64,000 nucleotides of DNA, taken from positions 4,128,001-4,192,000 of the forward strand of contig OZ220744.1 in the NCBI GenBank assembly GCA_965116925.1, given 5' to 3'. The DNA comes from Candidatus Poribacteria bacterium. GTDB taxonomy: Bacteria; Poribacteria; WGA-4E; PCPOR2b. Below the pieces are notes generated by a model that saw only the letters and a program-made list of their open reading frames with translations, was not told the DNA's origin and did not search any database. Below are positions 15,959 to 48,944 of this stretch, piece by piece; position 1 is the first letter of the stretch, and every line of letters starts with the position of its first letter. The position numbers and the translations under genes are program-made.

Positions 15959-16156
15959 TAATTGCATTAGAGCCTGTTGACGAATTGAATCAAATCATGT
16001 AAAATAGATCTGCCAATGTTTTCACCCTAGGACAAATATCCGCTTTGAGGGGTTTTGATGTGGCATTTCAGAAATAATCCGAGTTGCCAACACCAGTTGA
16101 CCTGTATCAGCCCCAAAGGATAAGAAACCAATTTGAGACCAGAGGAGGAAAGACAG

Positions 16157-17134
16157 ATGCAACGGAGATATACGCTAGCACATTTCATTTTAACTGGCGT
16201 TGTAGCCTTGAGTCTAACACTGATGGTAACCGCTGACGCACAGGCACAGATTGCTTTTGTGTCTTATAGGGCTGGTCCCCCTGAAATCTACGTGATGGAT
16301 GCCGATGGGAAGAATCAGCGCAGACTTACGACTAATATCTGGGAGGACTTGCATCCCGCATGGTCTCCGGACGGTGAACGCATTGCCTTCAGTTCCGGCA
16401 GGAATGGGAGAAAGTATGATATCTACGTGATGGATGCCGATGGGAAGAATCAACAAAGACTCACTGAAAACCCCACGCGTGACTCGCATCCCGCATGGTC
16501 TCCGGACGGTAAACGCATTGCCTTCAGTTCCAGAGCGCATGGACCCGACGAAATCTACGTGATGGACGCCGATGGAAGTAATCTACAAAGACTTACTGAA
16601 GATCTTGATCATGACTGGTCTCCCTCATGGTCACCCGACGGCAAACGCATTGCCTTCATGTCCGATAGGAATGACAACTTTTTCGACTTTGGAATCTACG
16701 TGATGGACGCCGATGGGAGGAATCTACAAAACCTCACTGACAACGCCCAGGAGGACTGGTATCCCTCATGGTCTCCTGACGGTGAACGCATCGTCTTCAT
16801 GTCTCGTAGGGATGGGAACGGGGAAATCTACGTGATGGATGCCGATGGGAGGAATCAGCAAAGACTCACTAAACATGCCGAGCATGACTGGTCTCCCTCA
16901 TGGTCTCCTGACGGTGAACGGATTACCTTCGCGTCTGATAGGAATGGGAACTATGAAATCTACGTGATGGATGCCGATGGGGGGAATCGACGAAGAGTCA
17001 CTAAACATCGCCAGGATGACTTTAGTCCTGCATGGTTTACCCCTACTTTTGCAGCTGAAGTTGCACCTTTTGCAGTTGCTCCCGCAGGTAAAAAGTTTAC
17101 AATGTGGGGCTGGTTCAAACAGGGCGACAAATAA
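16157..17134 (+). CDS. Secreted TolB-like PD40 beta-propeller protein
   Basis: Signal peptide; about 6 repeats of IYVMDADG...PxWSPDG; C-terminal FAVAPAGKKFTMWG tail; GAGGAGG SD. Confidence 0.9.
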   Translation: MQRRYTLAHFILTGVVALSLTLMVTADAQAQIAFVSYRAGPPEIYVMDADGKNQRRLTTNIWEDLHPAWSPDGERIAFSSGRNGRKYDIYVMDADGKNQQRLTENPTRDSHPAWSPDGKRIAFSSRAHGPDEIYVMDADGSNLQRLTEDLDHDWSPSWSPDGKRIAFMSDRNDNFFDFGIYVMDADGRNLQNLTDNAQEDWYPSWSPDGERIVFMSRRDGNGEIYVMDADGRNQQRLTKHAEHDWSPSWSPDGERITFASDRNGNYEIYVMDADGGNRRRVTKHRQDDFSPAWFTPTFAAEVAPFAVAPAGKKFTMWGWFKQGDK

Positions 17135-17423
17135 CCACCACTATCACTAAAACTGTCCGGTGTTAAGAAAAACCTCACCGGTACGCTGAATTCAATTACC
17201 ATCAGATGCAATTTGAGTCCATAAAAATATCTGTATTACCGCTATTTTGTCCTGCTAAATTTGTCTTGATACACATAAATCATAGAACCCATGCAGCCAA
17301 CTGTAGGCGGGGTATCTGGTTTCCCCGCACCACTTATGCTGAAATCTGTAATCCTGAATCATAGCTTTGTTGTTACATACAGATCAACGTCTTAATTCGT
17401 CAACACGCCCTAGGAGATTGATT

Positions 17424-19661
17424 ATGCCAACGGATCGAAATCTTATTCATCAAACGCTCAAAGGCAATCTACGGGCTTTCGACACCTTGGTCCAGAAATA
17501 TCAGCCGGTGGTCTATGCCCGGGCGCGGCTTATCGTACAAAATCCGCACGATGCCGAAGATCTAACGCAAGAAGTCTTTATCAAAGCGTATCAAAATCTT
17601 CCAAAACTGCGCGATGCCAGTCGGTTCGCCGGTTGGCTATCGCGAATTGTGAAGAATGTCTGCGTGACATGGATCCACCAGCAGAAGGAAATATCAAAAT
17701 CTTGCCCGATAGACGCGGATCCAATTGCGAGTCTGTCTGCTGCTGAGGCGACGCCGGAACAATTCCTGATGAAAAAAGAGTTGAACCAGACAATCCTGAA
17801 GGCAATTAATTCACTGCCTGCTGTGGATGGGGCGGTCGCGCACGATTTCTACATTGACCACCTCAGCTATGATGAAATCTCAGAGGAACACGGATTGTCG
17901 CATCGTGCCATCGCTAGTCGACTGCATCGCGCCAAACAACGCATCGCTCAGAAAGTCAAGCATTCGTTCAGCGCGTTTGGTATTTTCTGGAAGGATTGGG
18001 GAACATCCATGCTAAAGGGGACGAAAATTATGTCAACCCTTTCGCGTGCTTGGTCTATCTCTTTCGCAATTCACCTCGGTTTTGCTAGTGTCATTGGAAG
18101 TGTCATTGGAGGGTATTTGGTAACACAGAACCAATCATTCAAGGAGTTGACAGGCGTTGAAATCCCTCAAACAGTGAATACGCCGCCCAAACCGCAAGTT
18201 CAGAAACCCGTCATCAAACTCGTTCAAAAGCCGGAGGTGCCAATTGAAAGCACGGTCACCGTTGAACCGGTTAAAGTCCAACAAAGAACGATGAATATGG
18301 CCATGATTGGGGCAAGTACTGTCCAACCGCAGACCATCTCCGCGTTCTCAAATCAAGCCTTGAAACTTAATGCCCCCCTCAACCCCAATGTGCCGGAGGT
18401 GGTCGACCCCAATGCACCTATGCCTCAGAGTGTAGCACCTACGGATGACCCCGCTTCTAATGCACCCGACGCGCTAACATTGTCTTCACCCGTCGTCATA
18501 GGCACAGGTAAAAACGGTGATCGCGTGAGCCGTGGGGTTGCTGGTTCTGGGGGTATTGGCACAGACAGTGGTAGCGGCGTTGAGCGTGGTGATTTCAGTT
18601 TAGGAAATGATGTGAATCAGGCCCGTACCAGAGGTCATGTTGGCATAGGTTCATTGGTAGGCACCCAAGGGGCAACTAACATTGATGACACGCTTTCCAA
18701 TGTCACCGAGAAGGTAGTATTGGGCGGGGGTGTGCCTGAACTTCCATCTGGAAGCCCCGGTGCTATTGTTGTGGGGCGTGGTCTAGATATGATGGGCCGC
18801 TTAAACCTTGCCCGCTTTGAAAATCCGCTTCACCCCTTTGGAGTTGTATGTGGCAGCGGCGTCGGATATTTCCGATTTGGGGCAGGTTTGTCCTATTTAG
18901 TACAATCACTGAATCAAAAGACTAAAATCAAGACCCAACTTGTTGAGGCAGTCCAACTCAAGGATGCGGCACTCTTTCAGACACCGATTCTTTTTATGGA
19001 ACCGATGCCCGGCGGCTCAAAGATAAGTTCAGAACACGAGAAGGAACTGTTCTACTCTCATGGCAATCCAATATGGAATACTGCGCGTAGTAAATACACG
19101 GATGCTGAAGTCCAAAGACTACGGGAGTATGTGATTAATCGTGGGGGATTCGTTTATATAGCGACGCATGGAAATACAGATAACGCAATGAAAGGGACAA
19201 GAAAGGTGTTGCGGGACCTCCTGCCAGAGCATCAACTTGGTCTTATTCCCAATGATCACCCGATTTACAACAGTTATTACTCGCTAAATGGTCCTTTGCG
19301 TTTTCCGCTGCGCAAGATCGGAGCTTTCGGAGCTACCATCTCTCTTCACTTTGGTCCTTACTCCGAGCTACAAGGTATCACGATTGATGGTCGTCTTGCT
19401 GTCTTGGTTGATACCGAGCAGATGATGCATGTGATCGATGGCAAAGTTCAGAAACCCTTCTACGGCAAGTTCCAAAATCAGAATCAGATTTTAGAGGAAT
19501 TTGCCCCCCACGCGGCGCGGCACATGATTAACATTGTGGTCTATGCCATCACACATGGGAATATTTCAGATTACTCCGGTTATGTGCCAGCAGATAAGCG
19601 AGAGCAGCAAAGATTTCCAACCCGTGCGCCGCAAGCCGCAGCAATTAGAGCGGTTGAATAA
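17424..19661 (+). CDS. ECF sigma factor fused to TM, Pro/Gly-rich linker and DUF4159-like domain (Cys form)
   Basis: DAEDLTQEVF, F.GWL.RI and SY.EI...SRLHRA sigma-2/4 motifs; C-terminal domain highly similar to the paralogs at 20059 and 42642; AGGAG SD. Confidence 0.88.
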   Translation: MPTDRNLIHQTLKGNLRAFDTLVQKYQPVVYARARLIVQNPHDAEDLTQEVFIKAYQNLPKLRDASRFAGWLSRIVKNVCVTWIHQQKEISKSCPIDADPIASLSAAEATPEQFLMKKELNQTILKAINSLPAVDGAVAHDFYIDHLSYDEISEEHGLSHRAIASRLHRAKQRIAQKVKHSFSAFGIFWKDWGTSMLKGTKIMSTLSRAWSISFAIHLGFASVIGSVIGGYLVTQNQSFKELTGVEIPQTVNTPPKPQVQKPVIKLVQKPEVPIESTVTVEPVKVQQRTMNMAMIGASTVQPQTISAFSNQALKLNAPLNPNVPEVVDPNAPMPQSVAPTDDPASNAPDALTLSSPVVIGTGKNGDRVSRGVAGSGGIGTDSGSGVERGDFSLGNDVNQARTRGHVGIGSLVGTQGATNIDDTLSNVTEKVVLGGGVPELPSGSPGAIVVGRGLDMMGRLNLARFENPLHPFGVVCGSGVGYFRFGAGLSYLVQSLNQKTKIKTQLVEAVQLKDAALFQTPILFMEPMPGGSKISSEHEKELFYSHGNPIWNTARSKYTDAEVQRLREYVINRGGFVYIATHGNTDNAMKGTRKVLRDLLPEHQLGLIPNDHPIYNSYYSLNGPLRFPLRKIGAFGATISLHFGPYSELQGITIDGRLAVLVDTEQMMHVIDGKVQKPFYGKFQNQNQILEEFAPHAARHMINIVVYAITHGNISDYSGYVPADKREQQRFPTRAPQAAAIRAVE

Positions 19662-19690
19662 CAGCCCTGAAAGATGTGAAGATAGTAACC

Positions 19691-20006
19691 TATAGTGAAT
19701 TCTAAAAATAATAGGACTTACGCACTTCAGTAGGGAACGCAGATCTGCGTTCCCTACGAACCCCTTATGGAATCTCTGTTGTAGTTACCCGATTCATCGG
19801 GCGTTGGGACGAGTGTGCAGAGGCGATAAATCGCCGAACTACAAAACGTTGAGCATTCAACTGCGTAACTCCTAAATAAATAAACATTTTCGCCCCTCGG
19901 TTTCGATCCCCCCGATAAATCGGGGTAAACTAATTATCGGGGCCGGTAGGTGCGGTTTTCAATCGCACCGGTTTGGAGTGTCTCAATAATTCTAAATCGG
20001 ACTTTA
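19691..20006 (-). mobile_element. Family B miniature element (degenerate) carrying a nested family A copy
   Basis: Ends match the reverse complement of the 45286 and 59250 elements (TATAGTGAATTC...; ...GTGTCTCAATAATTCTAAA). Confidence 0.7.
19712..19874 (+). mobile_element. 163-bp miniature element family A, copy 2
   Basis: TIR TAGGACTTACGCA...TGCGTAACTCCTA; AATAA direct repeat on both sides. Confidence 0.85.
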
Positions 20007-20058
20007 GCATGTGGTAGTATGTCAAAAACCAACTATTCGCTTTAAGGAGGTTATCCTC

Positions 20059-21669
20059 ATGAAATCTCACCACAAGTACCGCTTCTGGTTCGTTTCTGTA
20101 TTGGTCCATTTATGCCTTGCGATTGTCTTCAGTGTCGCCATCATCAATCAAACGACTCCGAGTGATGTTGATACTTTAGAAGTGAGTATTCTACAAGTTA
20201 AACCGGTGCCGCTTGTAAAGAAAACACCCCGTATAGAGGCACCTATTGTCACGCCGACACCAGTGCCTAAGTTTCAAATTGAACCTCAGTCAACGTCAGT
20301 ACAGACCCGAACGCTCACAACCCGTCAGGTGAGATCTACGTCCGTATCTGTACCGAAAGCCGCAGCGGTGGATGCCCCGGTATCTCAGTCTCCGGCACAA
20401 TCTGTGCGTGCAGAAATTTCTGTCCAAAGCGCATCTCAGGTCAATGACCGTCCCGCTCAATCACTTGCCACTGCTGTTGATCTCCCTGTTCAGTCGGATG
20501 CCCCGTTAGCGGCAGGATTGAGCGAGGGGAGTTCGCTCTCTGGCGCAGGCAGTCTTGGCGGAGGTAGTGGTAGTGGGGTTGGACGGGGTTCCTTCGGTTT
20601 AGGAGGTGGTGTGAGCCAAACCCCGACTAGAGGAGGAACGGGTTTAAGTTCGCTGGTCGGTGCTGAAGGCGCGTCTAACATAGACGACACACTTGCCAAC
20701 GTTACCGAAAAGGTAACGCTAGGGGGTGGTGTGCCTGAGCTTCCTGCTGGCAGTCCTGGTGCTATAGTTGTGGGTCGCGGTCGAGATATCATGGGTCGCT
20801 TAAACCTTGCTCGTTTTGAAGATCCGCTTCACCCAAGCGCAGATATATGAGGCAGCGGCGTCGGAAATTTCCGATTTGGGGCAGGTCTGTCCTATTTAGT
20901 ACAATCACTGAATCAAAAGACTAAAATCAAGACCCAACTTGTTGAAGCGGTCCACCTGAAAGATGCATCGTTCTTTCAGACACCGATTCTTTTTATGGAA
21001 CCGATACCCGGCGGCTCAAAGGTAACTCCAGAACATCGGAAGAGAGTGTACAATTCCCACAGGATTCCGATCTGGAATACTGCGCGTCCGGGTGGATTAA
21101 GTAAGTACACTGACGCTGAAGTCCAAAGATTGCGAGAATATGTGATCAATCGTGGCGGATTCCTCTATCTAGCAACGCACGGGAATGCGGATAACGCAAT
21201 GAAAGGGACAAGAAAGGTGCTGCGGGACCTCCTGCCAGAGCATCACCTCGGCTTTGTTCCAAATGATCACTCGATTTACAACGCCTATTACTCGCTAAAC
21301 GGTCCTTTGCGTTTTCCCCTGCGCACTATTGGGACTATCGGACATCTCATCCCTCTTCACTTTGGTCCCTATTCCGAATTGCAAGGTATCACGATTGATG
21401 GTCGTCTTGCTGTGTTAGTAGATACCGAGCAGATGATGCATGTGATTGATGGCAAAGTTCAAAGACCTTTCTACGGCAAGTTCCAAAATCAGAATCAGAT
21501 TTTAGAGGAGTTTGCACCCCACGCGGCGCGGCACCTAATCAATGTTGTCGTTTATGCTATCACACATGGGAACATTTCGGATTATAGCAACTACGTTCCT
21601 GAAACACTTAAAAACTCTGGTGATGATAGTTATCGTAAAAAAGCCCCAGTTGTCACACAGAAATTGTAA
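20059..21669 (+). CDS. Membrane-anchored DUF4159-like protein, probable selenoprotein (Sec codon TGA 20848-20850, codon 264 of 536)
   Basis: AAGGAGG SD; the two ORF-track halves share a frame and are joined by 48 open codons; the TGA aligns with Cys in the 17424 paralog. Confidence 0.85.
20851..20894 (+). promoter_or_regulatory. Candidate bacterial SECIS element
   Basis: TGGGGCAG-GT-CTGTCCTA hairpin with apical GU about 35 nt after the UGA, preceded by a TCGGAAATTTCCGA palindrome. Confidence 0.7.
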
Positions 21670-21801
21670 GTTGCTGTTCAAACGTCAAACAAGGTTAGGG
21701 AAAAATTGAAAGAGTTGCACGATTTGTCAACAGGCGAATTTTGAAAGGAGGAAGCGGTATGTTTATCTAGCACTATTGAATAAACATACGCACAAATTGT
21801 T

Positions 21802-23484
21802 ATGATGAATTTAATCCGTTATACTTATCCCATTTTTTTTGGTGTATTTCTGTTCGCCTTTTTTATCGGTTGTGGTGATGATGATGACGAGGTTGTTGAC
21901 GTAGGTCCTGCGGTCGTATCAACGCCGGAGGGCGTGGTCAAAGGTACGATTGTAGATTTGGTAACAGAGCAGGGGATTGCGGGCATCCAAGTGACGTTGT
22001 CGTCGTCGAAAAAGTTACCGGGGGGAGATTTTGAACAGGAATCGATAGCGTCAGTCACGACGGATGGGAGTGGCAACTTCGTATTTGGCGAGTTGAAATC
22101 AGGCGAATATATAGTGAAGCTGAATGCCCCGGGTTACTTGGACCAACAAGCGTCGGTAACGGTGACACGTAAAGAGTCAGCGACGGTTCATTTTCGCCTT
22201 GAACCGGGTGTGAGGTTTAAGGGTACAGTCGTATCGGACGATGGAAATGCAGTCTCCAATGTTCTCATCACTCTGGGTGACCGTGCGTCGGTGACCAAGG
22301 GTGGTGGTCAATATGAGATATCGCCTGTATCGAAGGGCGTGTACAACTTGACAGCGGAAAAGCCGGGTTATCAGACGACGCATATACCGGGTCTAGTTGT
22401 AGGTGATAATGATATTTCCCAAAAGGTCACGATTCGTCGTCAAGTAAGGGGTCAGATAGTTTTCGCTCGTGGTGATGTAGCGGGCAAGGACTTTTTTGGT
22501 ATTTCAGTGATAAATGCGGACCGTACGGGTGAGAAGCCGCTGACGCACCTATTCGACGTTAATCCGTCGTGGTCGCCGGGTGGCAATGAAATAGTGTTTA
22601 GTCGTTCAGAAGCCAACCGTCCGTTCCAAATCTATATAATGGACAGCGGTGGTGGGAACGCCAGACCCATCAGTGGGGATCACTTCAATGATAGACATCC
22701 AGCGTGGTCACCCGATGGTCGTCGTCTAGCGTTTGTTCATGCACGTGCGTTGGGTCAACCTGCGGTTTACACGATGGATTCAAATGGAGACAATCGTGTT
22801 CGTCTTGCGGATTGCCATGCGGATTCCCGTCCAGCGTGGTCACCCGACGGTAGTCAGCTTATCTATAACCATGCGCTTAAGGAAGGGATTCGTAATCTTT
22901 TTGTGTTGGACATAGAGACATTTCTCGCCGCCAAGGAGGCACCTCCTACCCAAGTCATACCAGAACCGGAACCAGAACCGGAACCAGAGATAGTGCCGGA
23001 ACCAGAACCAGACCCTGAACCAGAGGTAGAACAAAAGCCGGAACCGGAGCCAGACCCGCATCAAACGCCGGATGGGGAGAAAGATAAACAGGAAGGTGAG
23101 GGTGATCCGCCTCAAGCACCGAGTGCCGATCCACCAGCCATAGAAGAGGGTATTCACCGTTTGACAACGAGTACGCACCACGATATCCACCCGGATTGGA
23201 GTCCAGATGGTTCAAAATTGGTGTTTACCAAGGAGAGTGCGCCGCTGAACGCTGCGGTGTATGTTCTGGATCTGTTTTCGCTGGTTCAGACCCGGTTGAC
23301 GGGTGAGGAGGGTTACAACGGGTATCCGTGTTGGTCTACCGATGGGACAAAGATAATCTTCAGCAGTAACCGCAACGGTAGTTTGGGTATCTGGATGATG
23401 GATGCCGATGGTAGTAATACCGCCCTTATTTTTGATGAATTGGGACAGGATGATATTATCAGCCAGCAGGCATGGCGTGAGTAA
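21802..23484 (+). CDS. Lipoprotein with carboxypeptidase-regulatory-like domains, TolB-like PD40 propeller and (PE)n insert, copy 1
   Basis: Lipobox FFIGC; G.V.D..T and APGY/KPGY beta-sandwich motifs; PxWSPDG repeats. Confidence 0.88.
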   Translation: MMNLIRYTYPIFFGVFLFAFFIGCGDDDDEVVDVGPAVVSTPEGVVKGTIVDLVTEQGIAGIQVTLSSSKKLPGGDFEQESIASVTTDGSGNFVFGELKSGEYIVKLNAPGYLDQQASVTVTRKESATVHFRLEPGVRFKGTVVSDDGNAVSNVLITLGDRASVTKGGGQYEISPVSKGVYNLTAEKPGYQTTHIPGLVVGDNDISQKVTIRRQVRGQIVFARGDVAGKDFFGISVINADRTGEKPLTHLFDVNPSWSPGGNEIVFSRSEANRPFQIYIMDSGGGNARPISGDHFNDRHPAWSPDGRRLAFVHARALGQPAVYTMDSNGDNRVRLADCHADSRPAWSPDGSQLIYNHALKEGIRNLFVLDIETFLAAKEAPPTQVIPEPEPEPEPEIVPEPEPDPEPEVEQKPEPEPDPHQTPDGEKDKQEGEGDPPQAPSADPPAIEEGIHRLTTSTHHDIHPDWSPDGSKLVFTKESAPLNAAVYVLDLFSLVQTRLTGEEGYNGYPCWSTDGTKIIFSSNRNGSLGIWMMDADGSNTALIFDELGQDDIISQQAWRE

Positions 23485-35423: not shown

Positions 35424-35656
35424 TATTTCAGGCTTCGGCGGGATGTCAGTCTTGGCACAAAGATTGCGTATTACTATTGTAATCACATTTGCCTCCAAAA
35501 ATTAATAGCCGGGTCAGTTTTGGGAATTGTGGTTTCCCTAGGTATTTTTCATTCGTTTCGAGGTCCGACTGGCACTCGCCTCGCCTATCAACTGGAATGC
35601 TTCCGTTGAAACGACATTTCCATCACCTGACCCGGCTTTTTTATTACGGATCCACG

Positions 35657-36553
35657 ATGAATCCATTCATTCAAATCGCTCAAGGTGTTATTGGAGCGAT
35701 TCTTATATCTGCCTTCTTCATTCTCAGATCAAGTTTCGGTGAAGCACGGCATACGCTTAGCATCATCGGTGCTATCATTATCTTTATCGCAAGTGGCTAC
35801 ATTCTGCGAACACGGTTAATCCGATGGGGGAGCCGGCAGGTCTGGCTCAAATACCATCAAAGGCTCGCATCGTTAGGATTATCGCTTGTTCTCATCCACT
35901 CAGCAGCCCAACCGCTCGTTTGGCATTCGTGGTTGGCGTTTACGTTAGCACTACTCAATCTTGGCACGGGTGTCGCGGTCAGTTTCACCACACATCGCGC
36001 ACGGCGGATTCTTCTCCGCTGCCATCTGGCACTTGCACCAATCTTGCTGCTTTCCGTTGTCCTACATGGTAGAGAAAAGTTAGACCACGATGAATTCTTT
36101 CCTTTGACTGAGGTTCACGACATCCCATGTGCGAAATGCCATACGTCGGAGAAACTGCTATTTACGATTGATCCACACTTTCAGAGCGATTTAGATAGTG
36201 GAGGGATTGTCTCAGAGGACTTGCAGTGGGAGTTTAATCTGCATGGGACTTCCCTCTCTCGACAGACAACGATTTCAACAAAAGAGACGGATAATCGCTG
36301 GCTGGTAACCGATGAAAAAAACGAGGGTGAATATACAGTCAAGAAAGCGGACGATCGGCTAAGTGTCCATACAGATGCTGTGTACGAGGCTTATACCTGT
36401 CTCACCTGTCATGTTCACAATACCCCGGAGATCCAATTTGACCACGAAAGTCATGGGGTCAAATCCTATAATGCCTGCCTCAACTGCCATCAGACTGTTA
36501 TCAATGGGGTAAAATACGGAACTCGAAAGGCGAATTGGGAGTATAATCCGTGA
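35657..36553 (+). CDS. Membrane protein with C-terminal multiheme c-type cytochrome region
   Basis: Several TM helices containing His; CAKCH, CLTCH and CLNCH motifs. Confidence 0.8.
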   Translation: MNPFIQIAQGVIGAILISAFFILRSSFGEARHTLSIIGAIIIFIASGYILRTRLIRWGSRQVWLKYHQRLASLGLSLVLIHSAAQPLVWHSWLAFTLALLNLGTGVAVSFTTHRARRILLRCHLALAPILLLSVVLHGREKLDHDEFFPLTEVHDIPCAKCHTSEKLLFTIDPHFQSDLDSGGIVSEDLQWEFNLHGTSLSRQTTISTKETDNRWLVTDEKNEGEYTVKKADDRLSVHTDAVYEAYTCLTCHVHNTPEIQFDHESHGVKSYNACLNCHQTVINGVKYGTRKANWEYNP

Positions 36554-37300: not shown

Positions 37301-38842
37301 CTATTCAACCGCTCCAATTGCTGCGGCTTGCGGCGCACGAGTTGGGATTCTTTGCTGCGCTTGCTTATCTGCCGGCACATAGCCGGAGTAATCTGAAATT
37401 TGACCGTGCGTTAGTGCATAGATGGCAACATTGGTCATAAAACGGTAGACGCCGGGCGAGTAGCGCACCCGACGGCTTGGCAGACTGATTGACTCCATCG
37501 CACACATATAGTCTCGACGAATGATCAGCACAGAAAGTTTGTCGCCGATAAAAATGCCTTCAAGAAAATTCCGTGATAGATTATAAGCAGGGCGTCCACT
37601 CGTTAAAAAAAAACCGATTGTCCTACCGGGATGGTAAATGTCAAAGCCGATGGGTGGTCCACCCATCTGATAGAAGTTGTGATAAATTTCATGGCTGTTG
37701 GGGATACGTCCCACATGATATTCTGGCATGATGTGCCGCATATTAGTCAGAAATAGACGGGTCATTGATTGGTCAGCAGCATGGGTACCACAGTCATCAA
37801 AAATGAGGAACCCTTCTTTTTCAACCAGATAGCGCCGCAACGAGACCGCTTCTAATCGAGAGAATTGACTACTCTTGATACTGCGAAGCATTCGCCCGGT
37901 GTCCAATGCTCTTACACCTTTTGCTTTAGTAAGAGCGGGATTATGTCCAGTCATGACGAGAATCGGTGATTTCATCACATTGGCGTCAGTCAACTTTAGT
38001 GCTCCGCCCTCGACGTTCATGTCTGTTTTAATTTTCGTCCGTTCGTTCAACCACTTTGCCCACGCGTTCAACGAAGACGCATCTGCCCACCAATCAGAGA
38101 GGTCATGGCGAAGGCGCGTAAAACGAAAGATCCCACGAATATCACGACCTCTACCAACAACGCGGCCTCCCGGCTCGCCGCGGGGCAGGGGTGGCACTTC
38201 AAGATTACCAAGCATAACGCCATCAACTACCCCGTCCAAGGCGTCCCCGATGGCTCCAACCTCCTTGACCATCGCAAGTTCCAACGGCAACTTGAACCCA
38301 TCAGTGATCCTGACCTGCACAGTCCCCCCAGACGACATTCCACGACCACTGCCTCCAATCCCACGACTCATGCGCCCACCATTTTTACCTGTGCCTATGA
38401 CGACAAATGAAGATAATGCCAGCGCATCAGAAATAGGGGCATCTGTATGTGTTACGCCCTTAGGAATAAGTGTATTGGAGACCACTTTTGGCACATTGGG
38501 GTTGAGGGGGGCATTAAGTTTCAAGGCTTGATTTGAAAACGTGGAGACGGTCTGCGGTTGGACAGTGGCTGTACGAACGCCAGCCGCATTTGTCGTTCTC
38601 GGTTGGGTTTTAACCGGTTCAACGATGACCGTGTTTTTGACTGGCACCTCTGGCTTTTGAACGGGTTTGATGACGGGTTTCCGAACTTGGGGTTTGGGTG
38701 GCGGATTCGCTGGTTGCAAAACTTCAATGCCTATCAAATCCTTAAATGATTGGGTTTGTGTTACTAGATACCCTCCAATAATAGCAGCAAGACACAGATG
38801 GATTGCTAAAGAGATAAACCAAGAACGCGAAACGGTGGACAT
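37301..38842 (-). CDS. Membrane-anchored DUF4159-like protein (DW/TGH/DDC type)
   Basis: N-terminal TM and Pro-rich linker; SDWWAD, P.LVMTGH, GFLIFDDCG, HEIYH.FY and LEGI motifs. Confidence 0.8.
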   Translation of the reverse strand: MSTVSRSWFISLAIHLCLAAIIGGYLVTQTQSFKDLIGIEVLQPANPPPKPQVRKPVIKPVQKPEVPVKNTVIVEPVKTQPRTTNAAGVRTATVQPQTVSTFSNQALKLNAPLNPNVPKVVSNTLIPKGVTHTDAPISDALALSSFVVIGTGKNGGRMSRGIGGSGRGMSSGGTVQVRITDGFKLPLELAMVKEVGAIGDALDGVVDGVMLGNLEVPPLPRGEPGGRVVGRGRDIRGIFRFTRLRHDLSDWWADASSLNAWAKWLNERTKIKTDMNVEGGALKLTDANVMKSPILVMTGHNPALTKAKGVRALDTGRMLRSIKSSQFSRLEAVSLRRYLVEKEGFLIFDDCGTHAADQSMTRLFLTNMRHIMPEYHVGRIPNSHEIYHNFYQMGGPPIGFDIYHPGRTIGFFLTSGRPAYNLSRNFLEGIFIGDKLSVLIIRRDYMCAMESISLPSRRVRYSPGVYRFMTNVAIYALTHGQISDYSGYVPADKQAQQRIPTRAPQAAAIGAVE

Positions 38843-38933
38843 AATTTTTATCCCCTTACTCCTGAAGTTTTATCATATGAATGACGCTTTAGCCAAGTGC
38901 TATGAGTCTATCGATTGGATTGCCATAAAACCC

Positions 38934-38960
38934 AAAAAGCGCCGCTAAACAGCGACGCTT
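38934..38960 (-). terminator. Intrinsic terminator (duplicate of 23530)
   Basis: Reverse complement of the 23530-23556 hairpin. Confidence 0.7.
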
Positions 38961-39023
38961 CGGTTTGAAAGCTAATGTTGTTGTTTCAGATAGGGCAGAT
39001 ACCATCATTCACGCCATGCCTCA

Positions 39024-40706
39024 TCATTCACGCCATGCCTGCTGGCTGATAATATCATCCTGCCCCAATTCATCGAAAATAAGGGCTGTATTGCTACCGT
39101 CGGCATCCATCATCCAGATACCCAAACTACCGTTGCGGTCACTGCTGAAGATTATCTTCGTCCCATCGGTAGACCAACACGGATACCCGTTGTAACCGAC
39201 CTCGCCCGTCAGGCGGGTTTGAACCAGCGAAAACAGATCTAGAACATACACCGCAGCGTTCAGCGGCGCGCTTTCCTTGGTAAACACCAATTTCGACCCG
39301 TCTGGACTCCAATCCGGGTGGATATCGTGGTGTGCACTAATTGTCAAACGTTGAATCCCTTCTTCGAGTGCTGGTGGATCGGCACTCGGTGCTTGGGGTG
39401 GGTCACCTTCACCTTCCTGTTTATCTTGCTCATCATCCGGCGTTTGATGAGGATCCGGCTCCGGTTCCGGCTTTTGGGGTGGGTCCGGTTCCGGCTCAGG
39501 CTCCGGTTCCGGCTCTGCTTCGGGTTCCGGTTCCGGCTCCGGTTCTGGTATGACTTGTGTTGGCGGTGCCTCCTTGGCGGCGAGAAATGTCTCAATATCC
39601 ACCACAAAAAGATTTCGTATCCCTTCGTTCAGAGCATGGTTATAGACGAGTTGAGTCCCATCGGGCGACCACGCAGGTCGAGAATCTGCGTGGCAGTCGG
39701 AAAGCCTGACACGATTGTCTCCGTTCACATTCATAGTGTAAATTGCAGGTTGACCCAACGCACGCGCATGAACAAATGCTAGACGACGACCATCGGGTGA
39801 CCACGCTGGATGACGATCATTAAAATGGTCTCCGCTGAGTGGCATCGCATTACCACCACGATTATCCATAATATAGATTTGTAGCGGACGATTGTTTTCT
39901 GAACGACTGAACGCTATTTCCATACCGTTAGGGGACCACGACGGGTTGACATCAAACACATGGGTCAACGCCTTTTCTCCATTCCGATCCGCGTTAATCA
40001 CTGAAATACCAAAAAAGTCATTACCCGCTACATTGCCACGCGCAAAAACTATCTGACCCCTTACTTGACGACGAATCGTGACCTTTTGGGAAATATCATT
40101 ATCACCTACAACTAGACCCGGTATATGCGTCGTCTGATAACCCGGCTTTTCCGCTGTCAAGTTGTACACGCCCTTCGATACAGGCGATATCTCATATTGA
40201 CCACCACCCTTGGTCACCGACGCACGGTCACCCAGAGTGATGAGAACATTGGAAACTGCATTGCCATCGTCCGATACCACTGTACCCTTAAACCTCACAC
40301 CCGGTTCAAGGCGAAAATGAACCGTCGCTGACTCTTTACGCGTCACCGTTACCGACGCTTGCTGGTCCAAGTAACCGGGCGCATAGATCTGTATTATATA
40401 GTCACCCGCTTTCAGTTCGCCAAAAAGGAAGTTACCACTCCCATCCGTCGTGACTGACGCTATCGATTCCTGTTCAAAATCTCCCCCCGGCAACTTTTTC
40501 GACGACGACAACGTCACTTGGATACCCCCAATCCCTTGCTCCGTTACCAAGTCTACAATCGTACCTTTGACCACGCCCTCCGGCGTTGATACTACCACAG
40601 GACCTACATCTACAACATCATCTTCGTCATCTCCACAACCTAATAAAAATAAAAATAGCGTCAAAGCAACAAAGCTGAAATAGGCGTAACGGATTAGGTT
40701 CGACAT
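39024..40706 (-). CDS. TolB-like PD40 lipoprotein, copy 2
   Basis: Lipobox LLGC; highly similar to 21802; start MSNLIRY. Confidence 0.88.
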   Translation of the reverse strand: MSNLIRYAYFSFVALTLFLFLLGCGDDEDDVVDVGPVVVSTPEGVVKGTIVDLVTEQGIGGIQVTLSSSKKLPGGDFEQESIASVTTDGSGNFLFGELKAGDYIIQIYAPGYLDQQASVTVTRKESATVHFRLEPGVRFKGTVVSDDGNAVSNVLITLGDRASVTKGGGQYEISPVSKGVYNLTAEKPGYQTTHIPGLVVGDNDISQKVTIRRQVRGQIVFARGNVAGNDFFGISVINADRNGEKALTHVFDVNPSWSPNGMEIAFSRSENNRPLQIYIMDNRGGNAMPLSGDHFNDRHPAWSPDGRRLAFVHARALGQPAIYTMNVNGDNRVRLSDCHADSRPAWSPDGTQLVYNHALNEGIRNLFVVDIETFLAAKEAPPTQVIPEPEPEPEPEAEPEPEPEPEPDPPQKPEPEPDPHQTPDDEQDKQEGEGDPPQAPSADPPALEEGIQRLTISAHHDIHPDWSPDGSKLVFTKESAPLNAAVYVLDLFSLVQTRLTGEVGYNGYPCWSTDGTKIIFSSDRNGSLGIWMMDADGSNTALIFDELGQDDIISQQAWRE

Positions 40707-40852
40707 AAAAATTCGTGGAATATATTTATCCGACAGGAATCGATAAACAACCACTTCCTCCTTTCAAAATTTGCCCGCTGACAAAATGCAAGGTTAAATC
40801 TTCATGAGATGATAGCGGAAGACAGTTCAAAAAACAAAGAAATTAATCGTGC

Positions 40853-41015
40853 TAGGACTCACGCAATTGAACGGTCAAAGCCCTGTAGTTCGGCGATTCA
40901 TCGCCGCTGGACACCGTTGCCAACGCCCGATGAATCGGGCAACTACAGCAGAGGCTCCATAAGGAGTCCGTAGGGAACGCAGATCTGCGTTCCCTACGGA
41001 AGTGCGTAACTCCTA
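40853..41015 (-). mobile_element. 163-bp miniature element family A, copy 3
   Basis: Same TIRs and hairpins in reverse orientation; no clear TSD. Confidence 0.85.
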
Positions 41016-41022
41016 CAGAAAT

Positions 41023-42642
41023 TTACAATTTCTGTATGACAACTGGTGCTTTTTTACGATAACTATCATCACCAGAGTTTTTAAGTGTTTCGGGAACGTA
41101 GTTGCTATAATCCGAAATATTCCCATGGGTGATGGCATAGACCACAATGTTAATCATGTGCCGCGCCGCGTGGGGTGCAAATTCTTCTAGGACTTGATTT
41201 TGATTGTACAAGTGACCATAGAACGGTTTCTGAACTTTGCCATCGATCACATGCATCATCTGCTCGGTATCTACTAACACAGCAAGACGACCATCAATCG
41301 TGATACCTTGCAATTCGGAATAGGGACCAAAGTGAAGGGGGATGGTTATTCCGCCATACACGACATGCCGCAAGGGAAAACGCAAAGGACCGTTTAGCGA
41401 GTAATAGGTGTTGTAAACCGGGTGATCATTCGGAACAAAGCCAAGTGGATGCTCTGGCAGGAGATCTCGCAGCACCTTTCTTGTCCCTTTCAATGCGTTA
41501 TCTGTATTTCCATGCGTTGCTAGATAGAGGAATCCGCCACGATTGATTACATATTCTCGCAATCTTTGGACTTCAACATCAGTGTATTTACTCAATCCGC
41601 TCGGACGCCTCGTATTCCAGATCGGAATGCTGTGGGAATTGAATACCCGCTTCTTGTGTTCTGGACTTATCCGTGAGCCACCTGATACCGGTTCCATAAA
41701 AAGAATCGGCGTCTGAAAGAACGATGCATCCTTCAGGTGGACCGCTTCAACAAGTTGGGTCTTGATTTTAGTCTTTTGATTCAGTGATTGTACTAAATAG
41801 GACAGACCTGCCCCAAATCGGAAATTTCCGACTCCACTGTTTCATATATCTGCGCTTGGGTGAAGCGGATCTTCAAAACGAGCAAGGTTTAAGCGACCCA
41901 TGATATCTCGACCGCGACCCACAATTATAGCACCAGGACTGCCAGCAGGAAGTTCAGGCACTTCTCCTCCTAGCGTTACTTTGTCGGCGACATTGGCAAG
42001 TGTATCGTCGATGTTAGACGCGCCTTCAGCACCGACCAGCGAACCGAGACCCGTGCCTCCTCTGGTCGGGGTTTGGCTCACACCACCTCCTAAACCGAAG
42101 GAACCCCGCCCAACACCGCTACCACTACCTTCGCCAAGACTGCCTGTGCCGGAAAGCGAACTGTTTCCGCTCAGTCCCGCAGCTAACGGGGCATCCGACT
42201 GAACCGGGAGATCAACAGCAGTGGCAAGTGAGTGGGCGGGACGGTCATTGGCGCGAAAAGATTGAGAAGCCCCTTGGACAGAAATTTCTGCACGCACAGA
42301 TTGTGCCGGAGACTGAGATACCGGGGCATCCACCGCTGTGGCTTTCGGCACAGATACAGAAGTTGATTTCACCGGATGGGGTGTAAAAGCCCGGGTCTGT
42401 ACCGATGCTGACAGACGCTCGATTTGAAAATTAGGCGTGGGCGTAGGTACGATGGAAGGGGCTACTATGCGTGGGGTTTTCTCCACAGGCGGCACCGGTT
42501 TAACTTTGAGAATGCTCACTTCTAAAGCATCGACATCGCTCCGAATAGTTTGGTTGACGATGATAACGCTGAGAACCATCGCTAGGCATAGATGGACCAA
42601 TAGAGAAACGCACCAGAAACGGTACTTGTAATGAGATTTCAT
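41023..42642 (-). CDS. Membrane-anchored DUF4159-like protein, probable selenoprotein (TGA at 41844-41842, codon 267 of 539)
   Basis: Same SD and start as 20059; HPSADI-TGA-NSGVGNFRF in frame with 41023..41697. Confidence 0.85.
41798..41841 (-). promoter_or_regulatory. Candidate bacterial SECIS element
   Basis: Hairpins identical to those in 20851-20894. Confidence 0.7.
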
Positions 42643-43343
42643 GAGGGTAACCTCCTTAAAGCGAATAATTGGCTTTTGACATACTCCCACATGTGAGCGT
42701 GCCAGTTCCGGTTTGCCCGAAAGGGGCGTTACCGAACCGTGAGTCCACGATTCTGTGAGTGCTGAAACAGCACAACAGAAGCATGACATCGGGATTTGTA
42801 AAGTCCCAAGCGCATGTGAGATTCCGCTATTAACAACACTTACTACCCGAAGAGGATTCAGCAACATCAATTTACATCTACTAGCCCCAAGGTAGTCTTA
42901 CGGTGTCTCGCTCAATGGACAATACTTCGTCCATTTTCTATATTTATACTGCTTTAGGCGGTTCAGAATGAAAGGTTTTTGTAACAGGTCATTTCTACCT
43001 AACCCCAATGATTGGGAAGGATGGCAGCTCATTGATTGGTCAGCCACCACTCATACACTGTTACTTGAAAAAGCATTGTAGCATGTTTTCGTTAGAAATA
43101 CAATTTTTTAATAGATAGCATGGTTAAGCGCGCAACATCCCCTTGAATCCCCGGAACATTACACTATACGGAAGTTGCTACTTAAATGCTAAATTGAATC
43201 AATCACCGCCTACAATATAAACCTCCTTGCATTCATTTGCAACCAGTTTTTTGAGGGGTATGGACATATCATGTCCATACTCCAAAAGTAACTGGAATTT
43301 TTGTGTGATTGGTTGAAGCAATTTTTTTATGGCGCACTGGGTT

Positions 43344-45017
43344 TTACTCACGCCATGCGTGTTGGCTGATAATATCATCCTGACTTAACTCATCAAAAAC
43401 AAGAGCGGTATTGCTGCCATCTGCATCCATGATCCAAATGCCAAAACTTCCATTACGATCACTGCTGAAAACAATCTTTGTACCATCAGGAGACCAACAC
43501 GGATAGCCGTTGTAACCTTCCGCACCGGTCAATCGGATTTGGCTTAGCGAAAATAGATCTACGACATACACCGCAGCATCGAACGGGGCGGTTTCTTTAG
43601 TAAAGACTAATTTTGAACCGTCTGGACTCCAATCCGGGTGGATATCGTGGTTTGCACTAATTGTCAAACGTTGAATCCCTTCTTCGAGTGCTGGTAGATC
43701 GGCGATCGGTGCCTGAGGTGGATCGCCCTCCCCCTCCTTCTTCTCTTCACCATCTGGGGTTTGATGGGGATCCGGCTCCGGCTCTGGCTTTTGGGGTATC
43801 TCCGGTTCCGGTTCTGGCTCCGGTACTATCTCTGGTTCCGGTTCCGGCTTCGGTTCTGGTTCCGCTTTCGTAGGGGGCGCGTCTTTGGCGGCGAGAAATG
43901 CCTCGATGTCCACCACAAAAAGATTCCGTTTGCCTCCCTTCAGAAGTGCATAGGTATAGACGATCTGAGTGCCATCAGGTGACCATGTAGGCCTAGCGTC
44001 TACATCGGAGTCGGCAAGTCGAACCCGATTCCCTCCGTTCACATTCATGGTATAAATTGCTGGTTGCCCCAAGGCTCGCGCGTGAACAAAGGCGATGCGG
44101 CGACCATCAGGAGACCAAGCCGGGTGTCGATCGTTGAAATGGTCCCCGCTGATGGATCTGGCACTGCCGCCGCGGTTATCCATAATGTAAATTTGTGGTA
44201 GCCCCCTGTTTTCTGAACGACTGAAAACAATTTCTCTACCATTAGGGGACCAGGTAGGCTGTAGGTCAGAAAGGTCTGTTAGAGACTTTTCGCCTGTACG
44301 GTCAGCGTTAATCGTTGAAATCCCAAAGAAGTCTTTGCCAACAACATCGGCGCGTACGAAGACAATCTGTCCCGTTACTTTGCGTCGAATAGAGATCCTT
44401 CGCGAGATGTCGCTATCACCGACAGTTATACTCGATATGTGTGTTGTGTGATAGCCCGGCTTTTCCGCAATCAAGTTGTATTGTCCCTTGGAGACCGGGG
44501 AAATTTCATATTGTCCACCACCATTCGTTACTGCCGCGCGTTCACCTAAAGAGATAAGAACATTTGCAACGACATTGCCATCGTCAGAGACCACGATGCC
44601 CTTAAACCTGACACCGGGTTCAACAAGAAAATTAACAATTGCAGGCTCTTTGCGAGTGACTTCCACCGGTGCTTGTTGACCCAGATAACCACGGGGATTG
44701 ATTTCCAAGACATATTCACCGGTTTTTAGTTCTTCAAATATGAAGCTCCCACTAGAATTGGTGGCTGTTGAAGCGACATTTTCCCGCTCAATATCGCCCC
44801 CTGGGAGTTTCTTTTGTGCAACCAATATAACTTGGGCATCTATAACGCCCTGCTGTGTGACCAGATCTACAACGGTTCCTTTGATAACCCCTTCCGGTGT
44901 TGCCACAACCCGGGGCCCTATATCATCAACAACTTCGTCATCACCACAGCCGATAAAAAACACAAACAGCGTCAAAGCAAAAAGACCGAGATAGGAGTAA
45001 CGGGTTAAGTTCGCCAT
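43344..45017 (-). CDS. TolB-like PD40 lipoprotein, copy 3 (more diverged)
   Basis: Lipobox FFIGC; same architecture as copies 1 and 2. Confidence 0.88.
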   Translation of the reverse strand: MANLTRYSYLGLFALTLFVFFIGCGDDEVVDDIGPRVVATPEGVIKGTVVDLVTQQGVIDAQVILVAQKKLPGGDIERENVASTATNSSGSFIFEELKTGEYVLEINPRGYLGQQAPVEVTRKEPAIVNFLVEPGVRFKGIVVSDDGNVVANVLISLGERAAVTNGGGQYEISPVSKGQYNLIAEKPGYHTTHISSITVGDSDISRRISIRRKVTGQIVFVRADVVGKDFFGISTINADRTGEKSLTDLSDLQPTWSPNGREIVFSRSENRGLPQIYIMDNRGGSARSISGDHFNDRHPAWSPDGRRIAFVHARALGQPAIYTMNVNGGNRVRLADSDVDARPTWSPDGTQIVYTYALLKGGKRNLFVVDIEAFLAAKDAPPTKAEPEPKPEPEPEIVPEPEPEPEIPQKPEPEPDPHQTPDGEEKKEGEGDPPQAPIADLPALEEGIQRLTISANHDIHPDWSPDGSKLVFTKETAPFDAAVYVVDLFSLSQIRLTGAEGYNGYPCWSPDGTKIVFSSDRNGSFGIWIMDADGSNTALVFDELSQDDIISQHAWRE

Positions 45018-47360: not shown

Positions 47361-48944
47361 TCACGCATATTCAAGTGTCAAATCCAGTCCAAGAATCGTG
47401 ACGATACCTTCAGGCAAGGCGACATCGTTCCGAGCTGCTAGTTCCACAACGTTTCTATCCGGCCGCAGCGGCGGCACCTGTACATGGTATGCAAGTTGGG
47501 GATTCACGGTTGGTCGGAACTGGCGATCCGTTCCGACCTCCGCTGCGGGAATGAATCGGCTGTTGGTCAATGGCTCACCGTTTAACCGAACTAGCAACGC
47601 ATCCTTCCATGAAGAATCATCAAACTCAACAGTCAAAGTTACCTTTATCGGCGGATGCGATGCCACATCGTCACCGACTATCAGCGGTAGGCGACCAATC
47701 ACGCCGGTACGCAGTGCACCACCCTTCGATTTGAGCGGTAGGGGACGAGGTGCGGATAGGTGTGCGTAGTACGGCAGGATGCCCCCTGCGGCACTATCGA
47801 CGCTGAACAGTTTATCTTTGCCAACCAACATGTTCGCATCTCCCACTTCATGCACACAGGCATAGCACCGACGACGGGTTTCGACCAACTGATCGCCGGT
47901 CATAAACTCAAACGGCGTCCCAAGGTTCCAGAAGTAGAGTCCGTCAACACCGGCGCGATACCAATTCGATGCCAATCCACGCACCAACGGCAGCGACTCT
48001 TTGCCCATATTCACGCACGGGTAGACAGGCACACCGTGCGGTTGTGCCGCTTCAACCCATGTCTTAACCGGCAGCGACCACGGCGCATATCCACCACCGA
48101 TGATCAGAATATCAATCAGATCTTCTTCGAGCCACGCTGCGACATCCATGCCGTTGTCAAGGGATGTGGTGAAGGTATCCGGGACTCGCACAGCGATGAG
48201 GGACGGTCTACCACGCCGCTGTGCTGCGGCGTCCGTCAGGCTGCGAATCTCCCCCATCATTGATGTGATGACCTCAATCTCGTCTACCGTAGACGACTCG
48301 CCGCGCATCCGCCGACTGAACAGCACCGGGTGACGGATGTAGTCCAGCTCAAACCCATCCACATCATACCGTTGGCAGATCTCCTCAATAATTTCGAGTT
48401 TACGTTGACGCACCGCTTTATGCGAGAAGTCCTGCGCGGTCGTGTACAATTCAAACTCTGGTAGCATCTCGCGGGTGTCAACCATGAACTCCGGGTGTGT
48501 GCGTTTCCAAACGGTCATGGCGTTGGCATCCATAAAACTATCGTGTACGTCGTTCATCCGTACCGACGCGAATGCCTCCATGTCGTGCTTGTGCGCGAAG
48601 TCACAAACTAGGTGCAATGGACAACGATACTCCCTCACCAGCGTCTTAACGTTCTCAGTCACCCTGTGCCAATACTTGACCGGCGCACCTTGAGCGTCAC
48701 CGTAGATCGGCTGCACCTTGCTGTCGTAAGCTGGAGCGTCAAACTGTCCACACAATACCGACCAAGAAATAGCACCGACCTGCGTTTCGACGAGCGGCGC
48801 GATCCGATGTGCGAGGAAACCTTCAGGCGTGTTTGCGTCCTCCAGTGCTAACTCGTGTGTGTCATCGTTGAAGATGACGCGCCGAGGACGTTTTGCCGCC
48901 TCAACCCGCGCTCGCTTGATCTCCGACCAGTCAGTTCCTGACAT
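47361..48944 (-). CDS. Putative glycoside hydrolase (GHL10-like TIM barrel)
   Basis: S.RMND.H, YDVDGFELD..RH and G.DG.Y.WN motifs. Confidence 0.7.
   Translation of the reverse strand: MSGTDWSEIKRARVEAAKRPRRVIFNDDTHELALEDANTPEGFLAHRIAPLVETQVGAISWSVLCGQFDAPAYDSKVQPIYGDAQGAPVKYWHRVTENVKTLVREYRCPLHLVCDFAHKHDMEAFASVRMNDVHDSFMDANAMTVWKRTHPEFMVDTREMLPEFELYTTAQDFSHKAVRQRKLEIIEEICQRYDVDGFELDYIRHPVLFSRRMRGESSTVDEIEVITSMMGEIRSLTDAAAQRRGRPSLIAVRVPDTFTTSLDNGMDVAAWLEEDLIDILIIGGGYAPWSLPVKTWVEAAQPHGVPVYPCVNMGKESLPLVRGLASNWYRAGVDGLYFWNLGTPFEFMTGDQLVETRRRCYACVHEVGDANMLVGKDKLFSVDSAAGGILPYYAHLSAPRPLPLKSKGGALRTGVIGRLPLIVGDDVASHPPIKVTLTVEFDDSSWKDALLVRLNGEPLTNSRFIPAAEVGTDRQFRPTVNPQLAYHVQVPPLRPDRNVVELAARNDVALPEGIVTILGLDLTLEYA

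Follow-up and report, generated by a model that had tools for sequence, protein, structure and literature searches.

A probable selenocysteine codon within a DUF4159-type membrane protein gene of sponge-associated Poribacteria

We analysed a stretch of 64,000 nucleotides (nt) from a Candidatus Poribacteria bacterium (assembly GCA_965116925.1, contig OZ220744.1, positions 4,128,001 to 4,192,000 of the forward strand), hereafter called the window, which contains a gene for a membrane protein with a C-terminal DUF4159-type domain and a single TGA codon in its frame. An earlier interpretation based on the letters and open reading frames (ORFs) only, hereafter the sequence-only reading, had proposed that the ORFs 20011-20850 and 20995-21669 form one selenoprotein gene. 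The two ORFs do lie in one frame, separated only by TGA 20848-20850 and 48 open codons, and when TGA is translated as selenocysteine (Sec, U) the product that begins with ATG 20059 has, as that reading had stated, 536 residues, with Sec as residue 264 (...FEDPLHPSADIUGSGVGNFRFGAGLSYL...) and no further stop. The sequence AAGGAGG is found at 20044-20050, 8 nt upstream of this ATG. No Shine-Dalgarno-like sequence was seen before ATG 20995, and neither ATG, GTG nor TTG occurs in frame between the TGA and position 20995.

The window carries a second, diverged copy of this gene on the opposite strand, and a longer paralog in which the same domain is fused to a sigma factor (Table 1). The paralog starting at 17424 reads ...LHPFGVVCGSGVGYFRFGAGLSYL... 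and has TGT, a Cys codon, at the Sec column. In the second copy the codons 3' of the TGA (41844-41842, minus strand) are AAC AGT GGA, compared with GGC AGC GGC in copy 1, so the observation that the TGA at 41842 was kept although the neighbouring codons had changed also stands. Taking these features together with the evidence given below, we consider it highly probable that both 20059-21669 and 41023-42642 are intact selenoprotein genes in which UGA encodes selenocysteine.

Table 1. Positions of the genes, codons and hairpins discussed in the text; numbering is that of the window unless a contig is given.
Feature	Position	Strand	Remarks
Putative selenoprotein gene, copy 1	20059..21669	+	536 codons + stop; N-terminal membrane segment, Pro/Ser/Gly-rich linker, DUF4159-type domain
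In-frame TGA of copy 1 (U264)	20848..20850	+	Assigned by frame and homolog column
Hairpin 1 (GUCGGA AAUU UCCGAU)	20860..20875	+	+13 to +28 from U of UGA
Hairpin 2, proposed selenocysteine insertion sequence	20877..20894	+	Stem G31-A36/U41-U46, loop GGUC at 20884-20887
Putative selenoprotein gene, copy 2	41023..42642	-	539 codons + stop; 86% identity to copy 1
In-frame TGA of copy 2	41842..41844	-	Alignment column identical to copy 1
Hairpin 2 of copy 2	41798..41815	-	Sequence identical to hairpin 2 of copy 1
Sigma-fused paralog with Cys (TGT) at the Sec column	17367..19661	+	Likely start ATG 17424
CarboxypepD_reg + PD40 beta-propeller protein	21802..23484	+	3' neighbour of copy 1
CarboxypepD_reg/PD40 gene	39024-40754	-	3' neighbour of copy 2
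selA, selB and tRNA-SeC cluster	C1:2373929-2377236	-	Loci L001 and L009, outside the window

Relatives of the gene were collected by six-frame searches of 41 related genomes, then of 159 genomes of the order and then of 176 genomes of the phylum, with E <= 1e-60 as the threshold for a match to the subfamily. The subfamily is present in 78 of the 159 genomes of the order, which gave 103 matching rows. It occurs in 22 of 28 genomes of the family to which the window belongs (f1), in 55 of 112 genomes of a second family (f2), and in no genome of any other family. The search of the whole phylum returned the identical 78 genomes out of 176 and no match outside the order. In 85 of the 103 rows a single TGA is the sole stop, while 15 rows are full length and stop-free (13 of them sigma-fused, two not) and three are partial and end short of the Sec column. 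Every TGA row was then fetched as DNA and distinct stretches were counted, including a partial extra copy from genome G013. The TGA stands at one shared column in 86 of these 86 distinct TGA-bearing stretches, and the identity to the query goes down to 48-52% in family f2. Of the 15 distinct close relatives that are free of stops, 13 have TGT and two TGC at the same column, and the library proteins P0004 and P0006 also have Cys. Neither TAA, TAG nor any residue other than Cys was found at this column within the subfamily. The pairing of a conserved UGA with Cys, which the sequence-only reading had seen in the genes of the window, was also found in these relatives, in which only TGA or TGY occupies the column. 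Across the order, 75 genome assemblies have this TGA codon, and the genome of the window has it twice.

Distant DUF4159 paralogs (25 rows, ~34% identity) read ...SDWWAD... and are separated from the subfamily by a 7-residue gap; as aligned across this gap, which makes the alignment uncertain, they have TGG (Trp) at the column, a codon one base away from TGA. The extra copy in G013 (L064 / L029:3582-3818) covers query residues 168-306 with 65% identity, keeps the TGA as well as hairpin 2, and is probably a decaying fragment beside an intact gene. Six library proteins end exactly one residue before U, which indicates that gene callers stop at this TGA. Contigs of relatives (84-88% alike) from the RNA-library run X15 bridge the TGA and one contig from the runs X19/X20 spans 20897-21669; only 7-8% of the sampled words occur in these three runs. 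As DNA is possibly present in the library, such contigs show presence at most, and neither transcription nor translation.

Over the 48 codons that separate the TGA from the next ATG, the ratio of non-synonymous to synonymous substitutions (dN/dS) is 0.00-0.32 in nine pairs of relatives. The flanking stretches, 5' of this TGA and 3' of this ATG, give 0.04-0.34 where dS is not saturated. This indicates that the very stretch which a split gene would leave untranslated is under selection at the protein level.

In every Sec form the UGA is followed by two hairpins. Hairpin 1 has a variable loop without a conserved G, and 95.5% of its cells are paired in 37 sequences; it is possibly a spacer. The subfamily's seven extra residues (~GVGNFRF, codons +3 to +9, 20857-20877) coincide almost exactly with this near-palindromic hairpin (GTCGGAAATTTCCGAT). 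Hairpin 2, which spans +30/31 to +46/47, has a 4-nt loop with G in the first place (GGUC, +37 to +40), a stem of 6-7 bp and a spacing of 33 nt from the UGA, and its minimum free energy (MFE), in kcal/mol, is -7.7 for the window and -9.4 for the f2 ortholog L043. A model of the bacterial selenocysteine insertion sequence (SECIS), given in the legend of Fig. 2 of PMC13188914, sets four limits, on loop, stem, spacing and MFE, and hairpin 2 falls within all four as that legend words them. Its core GCAGGUCUG is common to the 17-nt SECIS of E. coli, ggttgcaggtctgcacc, which is used for recombinant selenoproteins (PMC3834832).

The strongest single result of the analysis is the freeze of synonymous sites in this element. 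All 86 Sec forms are identical from +31 to +42, and +43 is U or C, which keeps either a G-U or a G-C pair. When 39 Sec forms were aligned over the 311-codon region, 43 columns were four-fold degenerate and only five of them never varied; all five belong to codons +8, +10, +11, +12 and +13 after the TGA. The less-diverged Cys forms vary at +35, +36, +39 and +42, and also at +40 (C>U in 6 of 14). The full motif of hairpin 2 is found in the genome at the two Sec loci only.

The genome of the window (6.47 Mb, one contig) encodes what is needed for selenocysteine insertion, all four of selA, selB, selC and selD being found there. The selA gene scores 532 bits and the SelB wing domain 71.5 bits, and tRNA-SeC(tca) adjoins selA and selB. 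The selD gene, which lies at C1:6018658 (L010) outside the window, itself contains a TGA (...KTCGU AAKV...), followed by a hairpin of 7 bp whose loop, AGUU, occupies +21 to +24 counted from the UGA. We also considered whether TGA is reassigned throughout the genome, which was rejected: TGA terminates 823 of the 2750 mechanically called ORFs with a length of 300 codons or more, and prfB, the gene of release factor 2 (RF2), is present with 520 bits. At UGA264, SelB carrying Sec-tRNA(Sec) would bind hairpin 2 at its GGUC loop, which lies 33 nt further downstream, and insertion of selenocysteine would compete with RF2, while hairpin 1 (+13 to +28) might act as a compact spacer that sets the distance of hairpin 2. 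In all likelihood, judging from these sequence features, the decoding follows the known bacterial mechanism and it is the family itself that is new among selenoproteins.

Several observations weigh against this interpretation. Both hairpins are present in the Cys paralogs too, and part of their conservation may therefore stem from the peptide motif. No compensatory covariation was found in the hairpins, the one change in helix 2 being from G-U to G-C, and shuffling tests of covariation are uninformative because the hairpin columns hardly vary, so that this test speaks neither for nor against the hairpins; the RNA evidence is consequently one of invariance. The MFE of -7.7 in the window barely passes the limit of -7.5, and the spacing of 33 nt is near the upper limit of 37, with the selD loop of the same genome at +21 to +24. 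A scan of 20700-21000 against Rfam at E <= 10 gave no match, which we do not hold against the hairpin, the sensitivity of Rfam to the selD hairpin of this genome being unchecked. The co-occurrence of the gene with SelB is uninformative, since SelB is near-universal in the order (153 of 159 genomes), and in one TGA-bearing genome, G098 (94% complete, ~200 contigs), no match to the SelB wing domain was found. Finally, the relatives share descent, so that the counts given above overstate the number of independent events.

The TGA could be attributed to a true inherited stop, with the locus being either a pseudogene or two halves, a stub of 263 residues and a DUF4159 fragment of 224 residues. This would be in accordance with ORF calling under table 11, which yields two ORFs, with public gene calls, which stop at the TGA, and with the conserved Met at 20995 as a possible start. 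It is however difficult to see how a mere stop would remain TGA in every one of 86 distinct relatives, some with as little as ~50% identity, and never become TAA or TAG, while synonymous sites elsewhere are saturated, or why 48 codons which neither half translates should keep their dN/dS at 0.00-0.32. The downstream half has no start codon in frame before 20995 and no Shine-Dalgarno sequence there, its product would, as inferred from the sequence, have neither membrane anchor nor signal peptide, and further stops or frameshifts have not accumulated. We regard an inherited stop as barely credible. A sequencing or assembly artefact has a practically negligible probability: many of the genomes are metagenome-assembled, which is nothing specific to this site, while the codon is found in 75 assemblies and in both copies of a single-contig genome, and contigs of independent public runs cover it.

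Another explanation is that the UGA is read without selenium, either at a low level by a near-cognate tRNA for Trp or Cys or mainly as a programmed terminator governing the proportion of short and long products; the hairpins would then promote read-through or pausing instead of binding SelB. The 25 canonical DUF4159 rows with TGG at the column, one base from TGA, speak for it, as do the loop of hairpin 1, which has no SECIS G, and the spacing of hairpin 2, unusually long in comparison with selD of the same genome. However, the alignment to the Trp-type proteins crosses the 7-residue gap and is uncertain, while the nearest relatives (the 15 stop-free forms, P0004 and P0006) have Cys and not Trp. 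The apical sequence of hairpin 2 is identical to that of an element with proven SelB binding, hairpin 2 fits the SECIS model, the genome has a complete Sec pathway including a tRNA with the anticodon UCA, and the presence of RF2 would make unassisted read-through inefficient. Moreover, selenium-free decoding leaves the frozen synonymous sites unexplained, and we consider it very improbable. Selenocysteine remains the preferred reading of the codon, and with it uncultivated sponge-associated Poribacteria almost certainly carry one intact membrane selenoprotein where the gene looks cut in two.

The Pfam family PF13709 (DUF4159) was found at the C-terminus of copy 1, copy 2 and the Cys paralog. 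In copy 1 the DUF4159 hidden Markov model (HMM) scores 63.3 bits against a cut-off of 25.9 and covers residues 349-500, corresponding to profile positions 64-201 of 202; no model of NCBIfam release 20 matched the TGA protein. The N-terminus of copy 1 consists of ~8 mostly basic residues followed by ~22 hydrophobic ones. This single hydrophobic segment preceded by basic residues suggests a single-pass membrane protein with a short cytoplasmic N-terminus, the remainder of which, beginning with a long Pro/Ser/Gly-rich linker, would be located outside the cytoplasm, probably in the periplasm. No Pfam domain, and specifically no sigma or anti-sigma domain, was found N-terminal of the membrane segment. 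An identity as anti-sigma factor was considered and rejected on the grounds that only ~8 residues precede the hydrophobic segment, with no Pfam domain in them. The Cys paralog (17424-19661) joins regions 2 and 4 of a Sigma70 of the extracytoplasmic function (ECF) type, a membrane segment, a linker and DUF4159 in one polypeptide.

For the last 311 residues AlphaFold gave, from an alignment of 80 sequences, a model with a predicted local distance difference test score (pLDDT) of 78 and a predicted template modelling (pTM) score of 0.83. Its best match in the PDB, as found by Foldseek, is 4i66 (E 1.6e-9, template modelling (TM) score 0.67 on the target, probability 1.00), which is Hoch_4089 of Haliangium ochraceum, an uncharacterised protein and a solved example of DUF4159. 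The next matches, to class I glutamine-amidotransferase-like and ThuA-like proteins, are weak (E 7e-3 to 5e-2, TM 0.27-0.34). For the C-terminal region we propose a DUF4159 domain located in the periplasm, the fold of which would be flavodoxin-like and class I amidotransferase-like. In the model Sec is residue 39 and stands directly after a beta-hairpin, at the beginning of a low-confidence loop; this loop, the first to follow strand 1 of the domain, is not a nucleophile elbow. The loop, D-I-U-G-S-G-V-G-N-F-R-F-G-A-G, is rich in glycine and opens the domain, and neither the 39 Sec forms nor the 15 Cys forms that were aligned have another Cys in the 311-residue region. The sequence-only reading had described a DUF4159-like protein with Sec at the start of the domain and no CxxU motif. 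The HMM score and the fold match to 4i66 bear out the first part, the position of the loop the second, and the third is borne out by Sec being the sole Cys or Sec of the region in the 39 Sec forms.

To follow the history of the residue, quick maximum-likelihood trees of the domain were made with IQ-TREE, midpoint rooted, with the trait columns dropped or U masked; a second tree omits row L023. Thirteen sigma-fused and three unfused Cys forms make up two clades nested within the Sec forms of genus g1, and all deeper branches of the domain tree are Sec. Distant relatives were searched for among 1.84 billion representative proteins. The library protein P0006 (545 aa, full length) is collinear with the query at 46% identity and branches as the sister lineage of the entire Sec clade. 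It carries Cys at the Sec column and a second Cys ten residues past it (DVCGSGARAISFCAGVPYL), and was not found among the 176 Poribacteria genomes searched. Another library relative, P0005 (740 aa), is presumably sigma-fused. The likely course of events, to judge from these trees, is a change from Cys to Sec at the base of f1 and f2, followed by two returns to Cys; the initial step is not shown, because the rooting is by midpoint only.

Genome G014 has a sigma-fused DUF4159 protein of 739 residues (L040:868-3087) that carries the TGA (...LHPSADIUGSGVGNFRFGAG...) and would be a selenocysteine-containing sigma-factor fusion. In the trees its C-terminal domain clusters with unfused Sec forms, which suggests recombination between neighbouring paralogs. 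In family f2, 54 of the 55 matching genomes have no second match at E <= 1e-60, hence no sigma-fused paralog was detected there.

In family f1, including the window, a CarboxypepD_reg/PD40 propeller gene stands 3' of every DUF4159 membrane gene, and such a gene is also found 3' of the ortholog in genus g5. The window has two clusters in inverted orientation, 16133-23484 (plus strand) and 37301-45017 (minus strand), which repeat the pair of DUF4159 and CarboxypepD_reg/PD40 genes. The plus-strand cluster contains a PD40 protein, the sigma-fused Cys form, the Sec form and a CarboxypepD_reg/PD40 protein; the minus-strand cluster contains a CarboxypepD_reg/PD40 protein, the second Sec copy, a further CarboxypepD_reg/PD40 protein and a canonical, Trp-type DUF4159 protein (37301-38842). 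Two other ORFs of the window, 35489-36553 (plus strand, 354 aa) and 47361-48944 (minus strand, 527 aa), match no Pfam family at E <= 0.001. In genome G023 of genus g5 an ORF for an rve-type integrase/transposase (L112:10756-11484) lies ~1.5 kb upstream of the Sec gene. The surroundings in family f2 are of another kind: in genome G149 a DUF5916 protein of 818 aa (L111:5077-7533) is encoded upstream of the Sec gene and a tandem-rhodanese protein of 300 aa (L111:9715-10617) downstream, followed by genes for 6-pyruvoyl-tetrahydropterin synthase and GTP cyclohydrolase I.

The pairing with CarboxypepD_reg/PD40 genes in f1 hints at envelope signalling, and the paralogs that join the same domain to an ECF sigma factor also indicate signalling. 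The neighbourhoods, however, differ between f1 and f2, and the context therefore yields no firm lead on function. A lone, probably periplasmic Sec in a glycine-rich loop that is absent from other DUF4159 proteins suggests a reactive or ligand-binding residue. With low confidence, one may think of a reactive selenol whose role is to sense an oxidant, electrophile or metal in the periplasm or to react with it, or alternatively to form a selenenyl-sulfide with a partner. That Sec does the sensing in an extracytoplasmic sensor domain, in which the selenol replaces a thiol and the signal is passed on to transcription, we consider rather unlikely on present grounds. If it were true, this would be a selenoprotein used in signal transduction and not in catalysis.

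That the family has not been described as a selenoprotein, which the sequence-only reading had supposed, agrees with the literature and lists searched. No description of a DUF4159 selenoprotein was found in the literature, where DUF4159 is mentioned only in the Pfam paper. Neither DUF4159, PF13709 nor Poribacteria appears in the part of the 2026 prokaryotic selenoproteome review PMC13188914 that was covered, and DUF4159 and PF13709 are likewise absent from the main texts, as far as these were covered, of BSepDB (PMC13326102) and deep-Sep (PMC12013277). They are also absent from one supplement of BSepDB, whose website and other supplements may bear on novelty. The result would be a new selenoprotein family in a domain without known function, in which the Sec/Cys residue marks the probable site of chemistry. 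It also concerns annotation, as gene callers are prone to split this gene into two fragments in at least 75 assemblies of Poribacteria.

Compared with known systems, the protein shares its general build with the canonical DUF4159 paralogs of the same genome, which also consist of a membrane segment, a linker and the domain. It differs from them in the first third of the domain, which is remodelled: the canonical ...SDWWAD-ASSLN... is replaced in the subfamily by ...ADI-U/C-GSGVGNFRFGAGLSYL, with seven extra residues. The membrane-fused ECF sigma factors, whose build is shared by the Cys paralog, are a second point of reference, but the Sec protein has ~8 cytoplasmic residues and no sigma domain. 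In fdhF of E. coli the distance from the UGA to the SECIS loop is ~17 nt and the element has a bulged U. The Poribacteria genes resemble fdhF in having an in-frame UGA followed by a hairpin within the coding region, with the apical GCA-GGUC-UGC/U seen also in the recombinant-expression form of the element. They differ from it in the distance of the loop from the UGA, which is 33 nt, and in a conserved hairpin of 16 nt that fills the gap, and no bulged U of the fdhF kind was seen in them. An fdhF-like apical loop placed 33 nt away behind a second hairpin would therefore be a natural test of the limits of the distance between the codon and the loop bound by SelB. With regard to the motif, predicted families without CxxU or UxxC are listed in the covered part of PMC13188914, for example a DUF523 protein with SxSUG, a hypothetical protein with DG GUxG and a CTP-synthase-related protein with GxUxG. 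The likeness to these consists in a Sec beside Gly with no partner Cys nearby, in the TGA/Cys pair and in a bacterial SECIS, whereas fold and family are other than DUF4159 in the cases given there. With its lone Sec, its probable export to the periplasm and its paralogs linked to ECF sigma factors, the Poribacteria protein is unlike most predicted bacterial selenoproteins.

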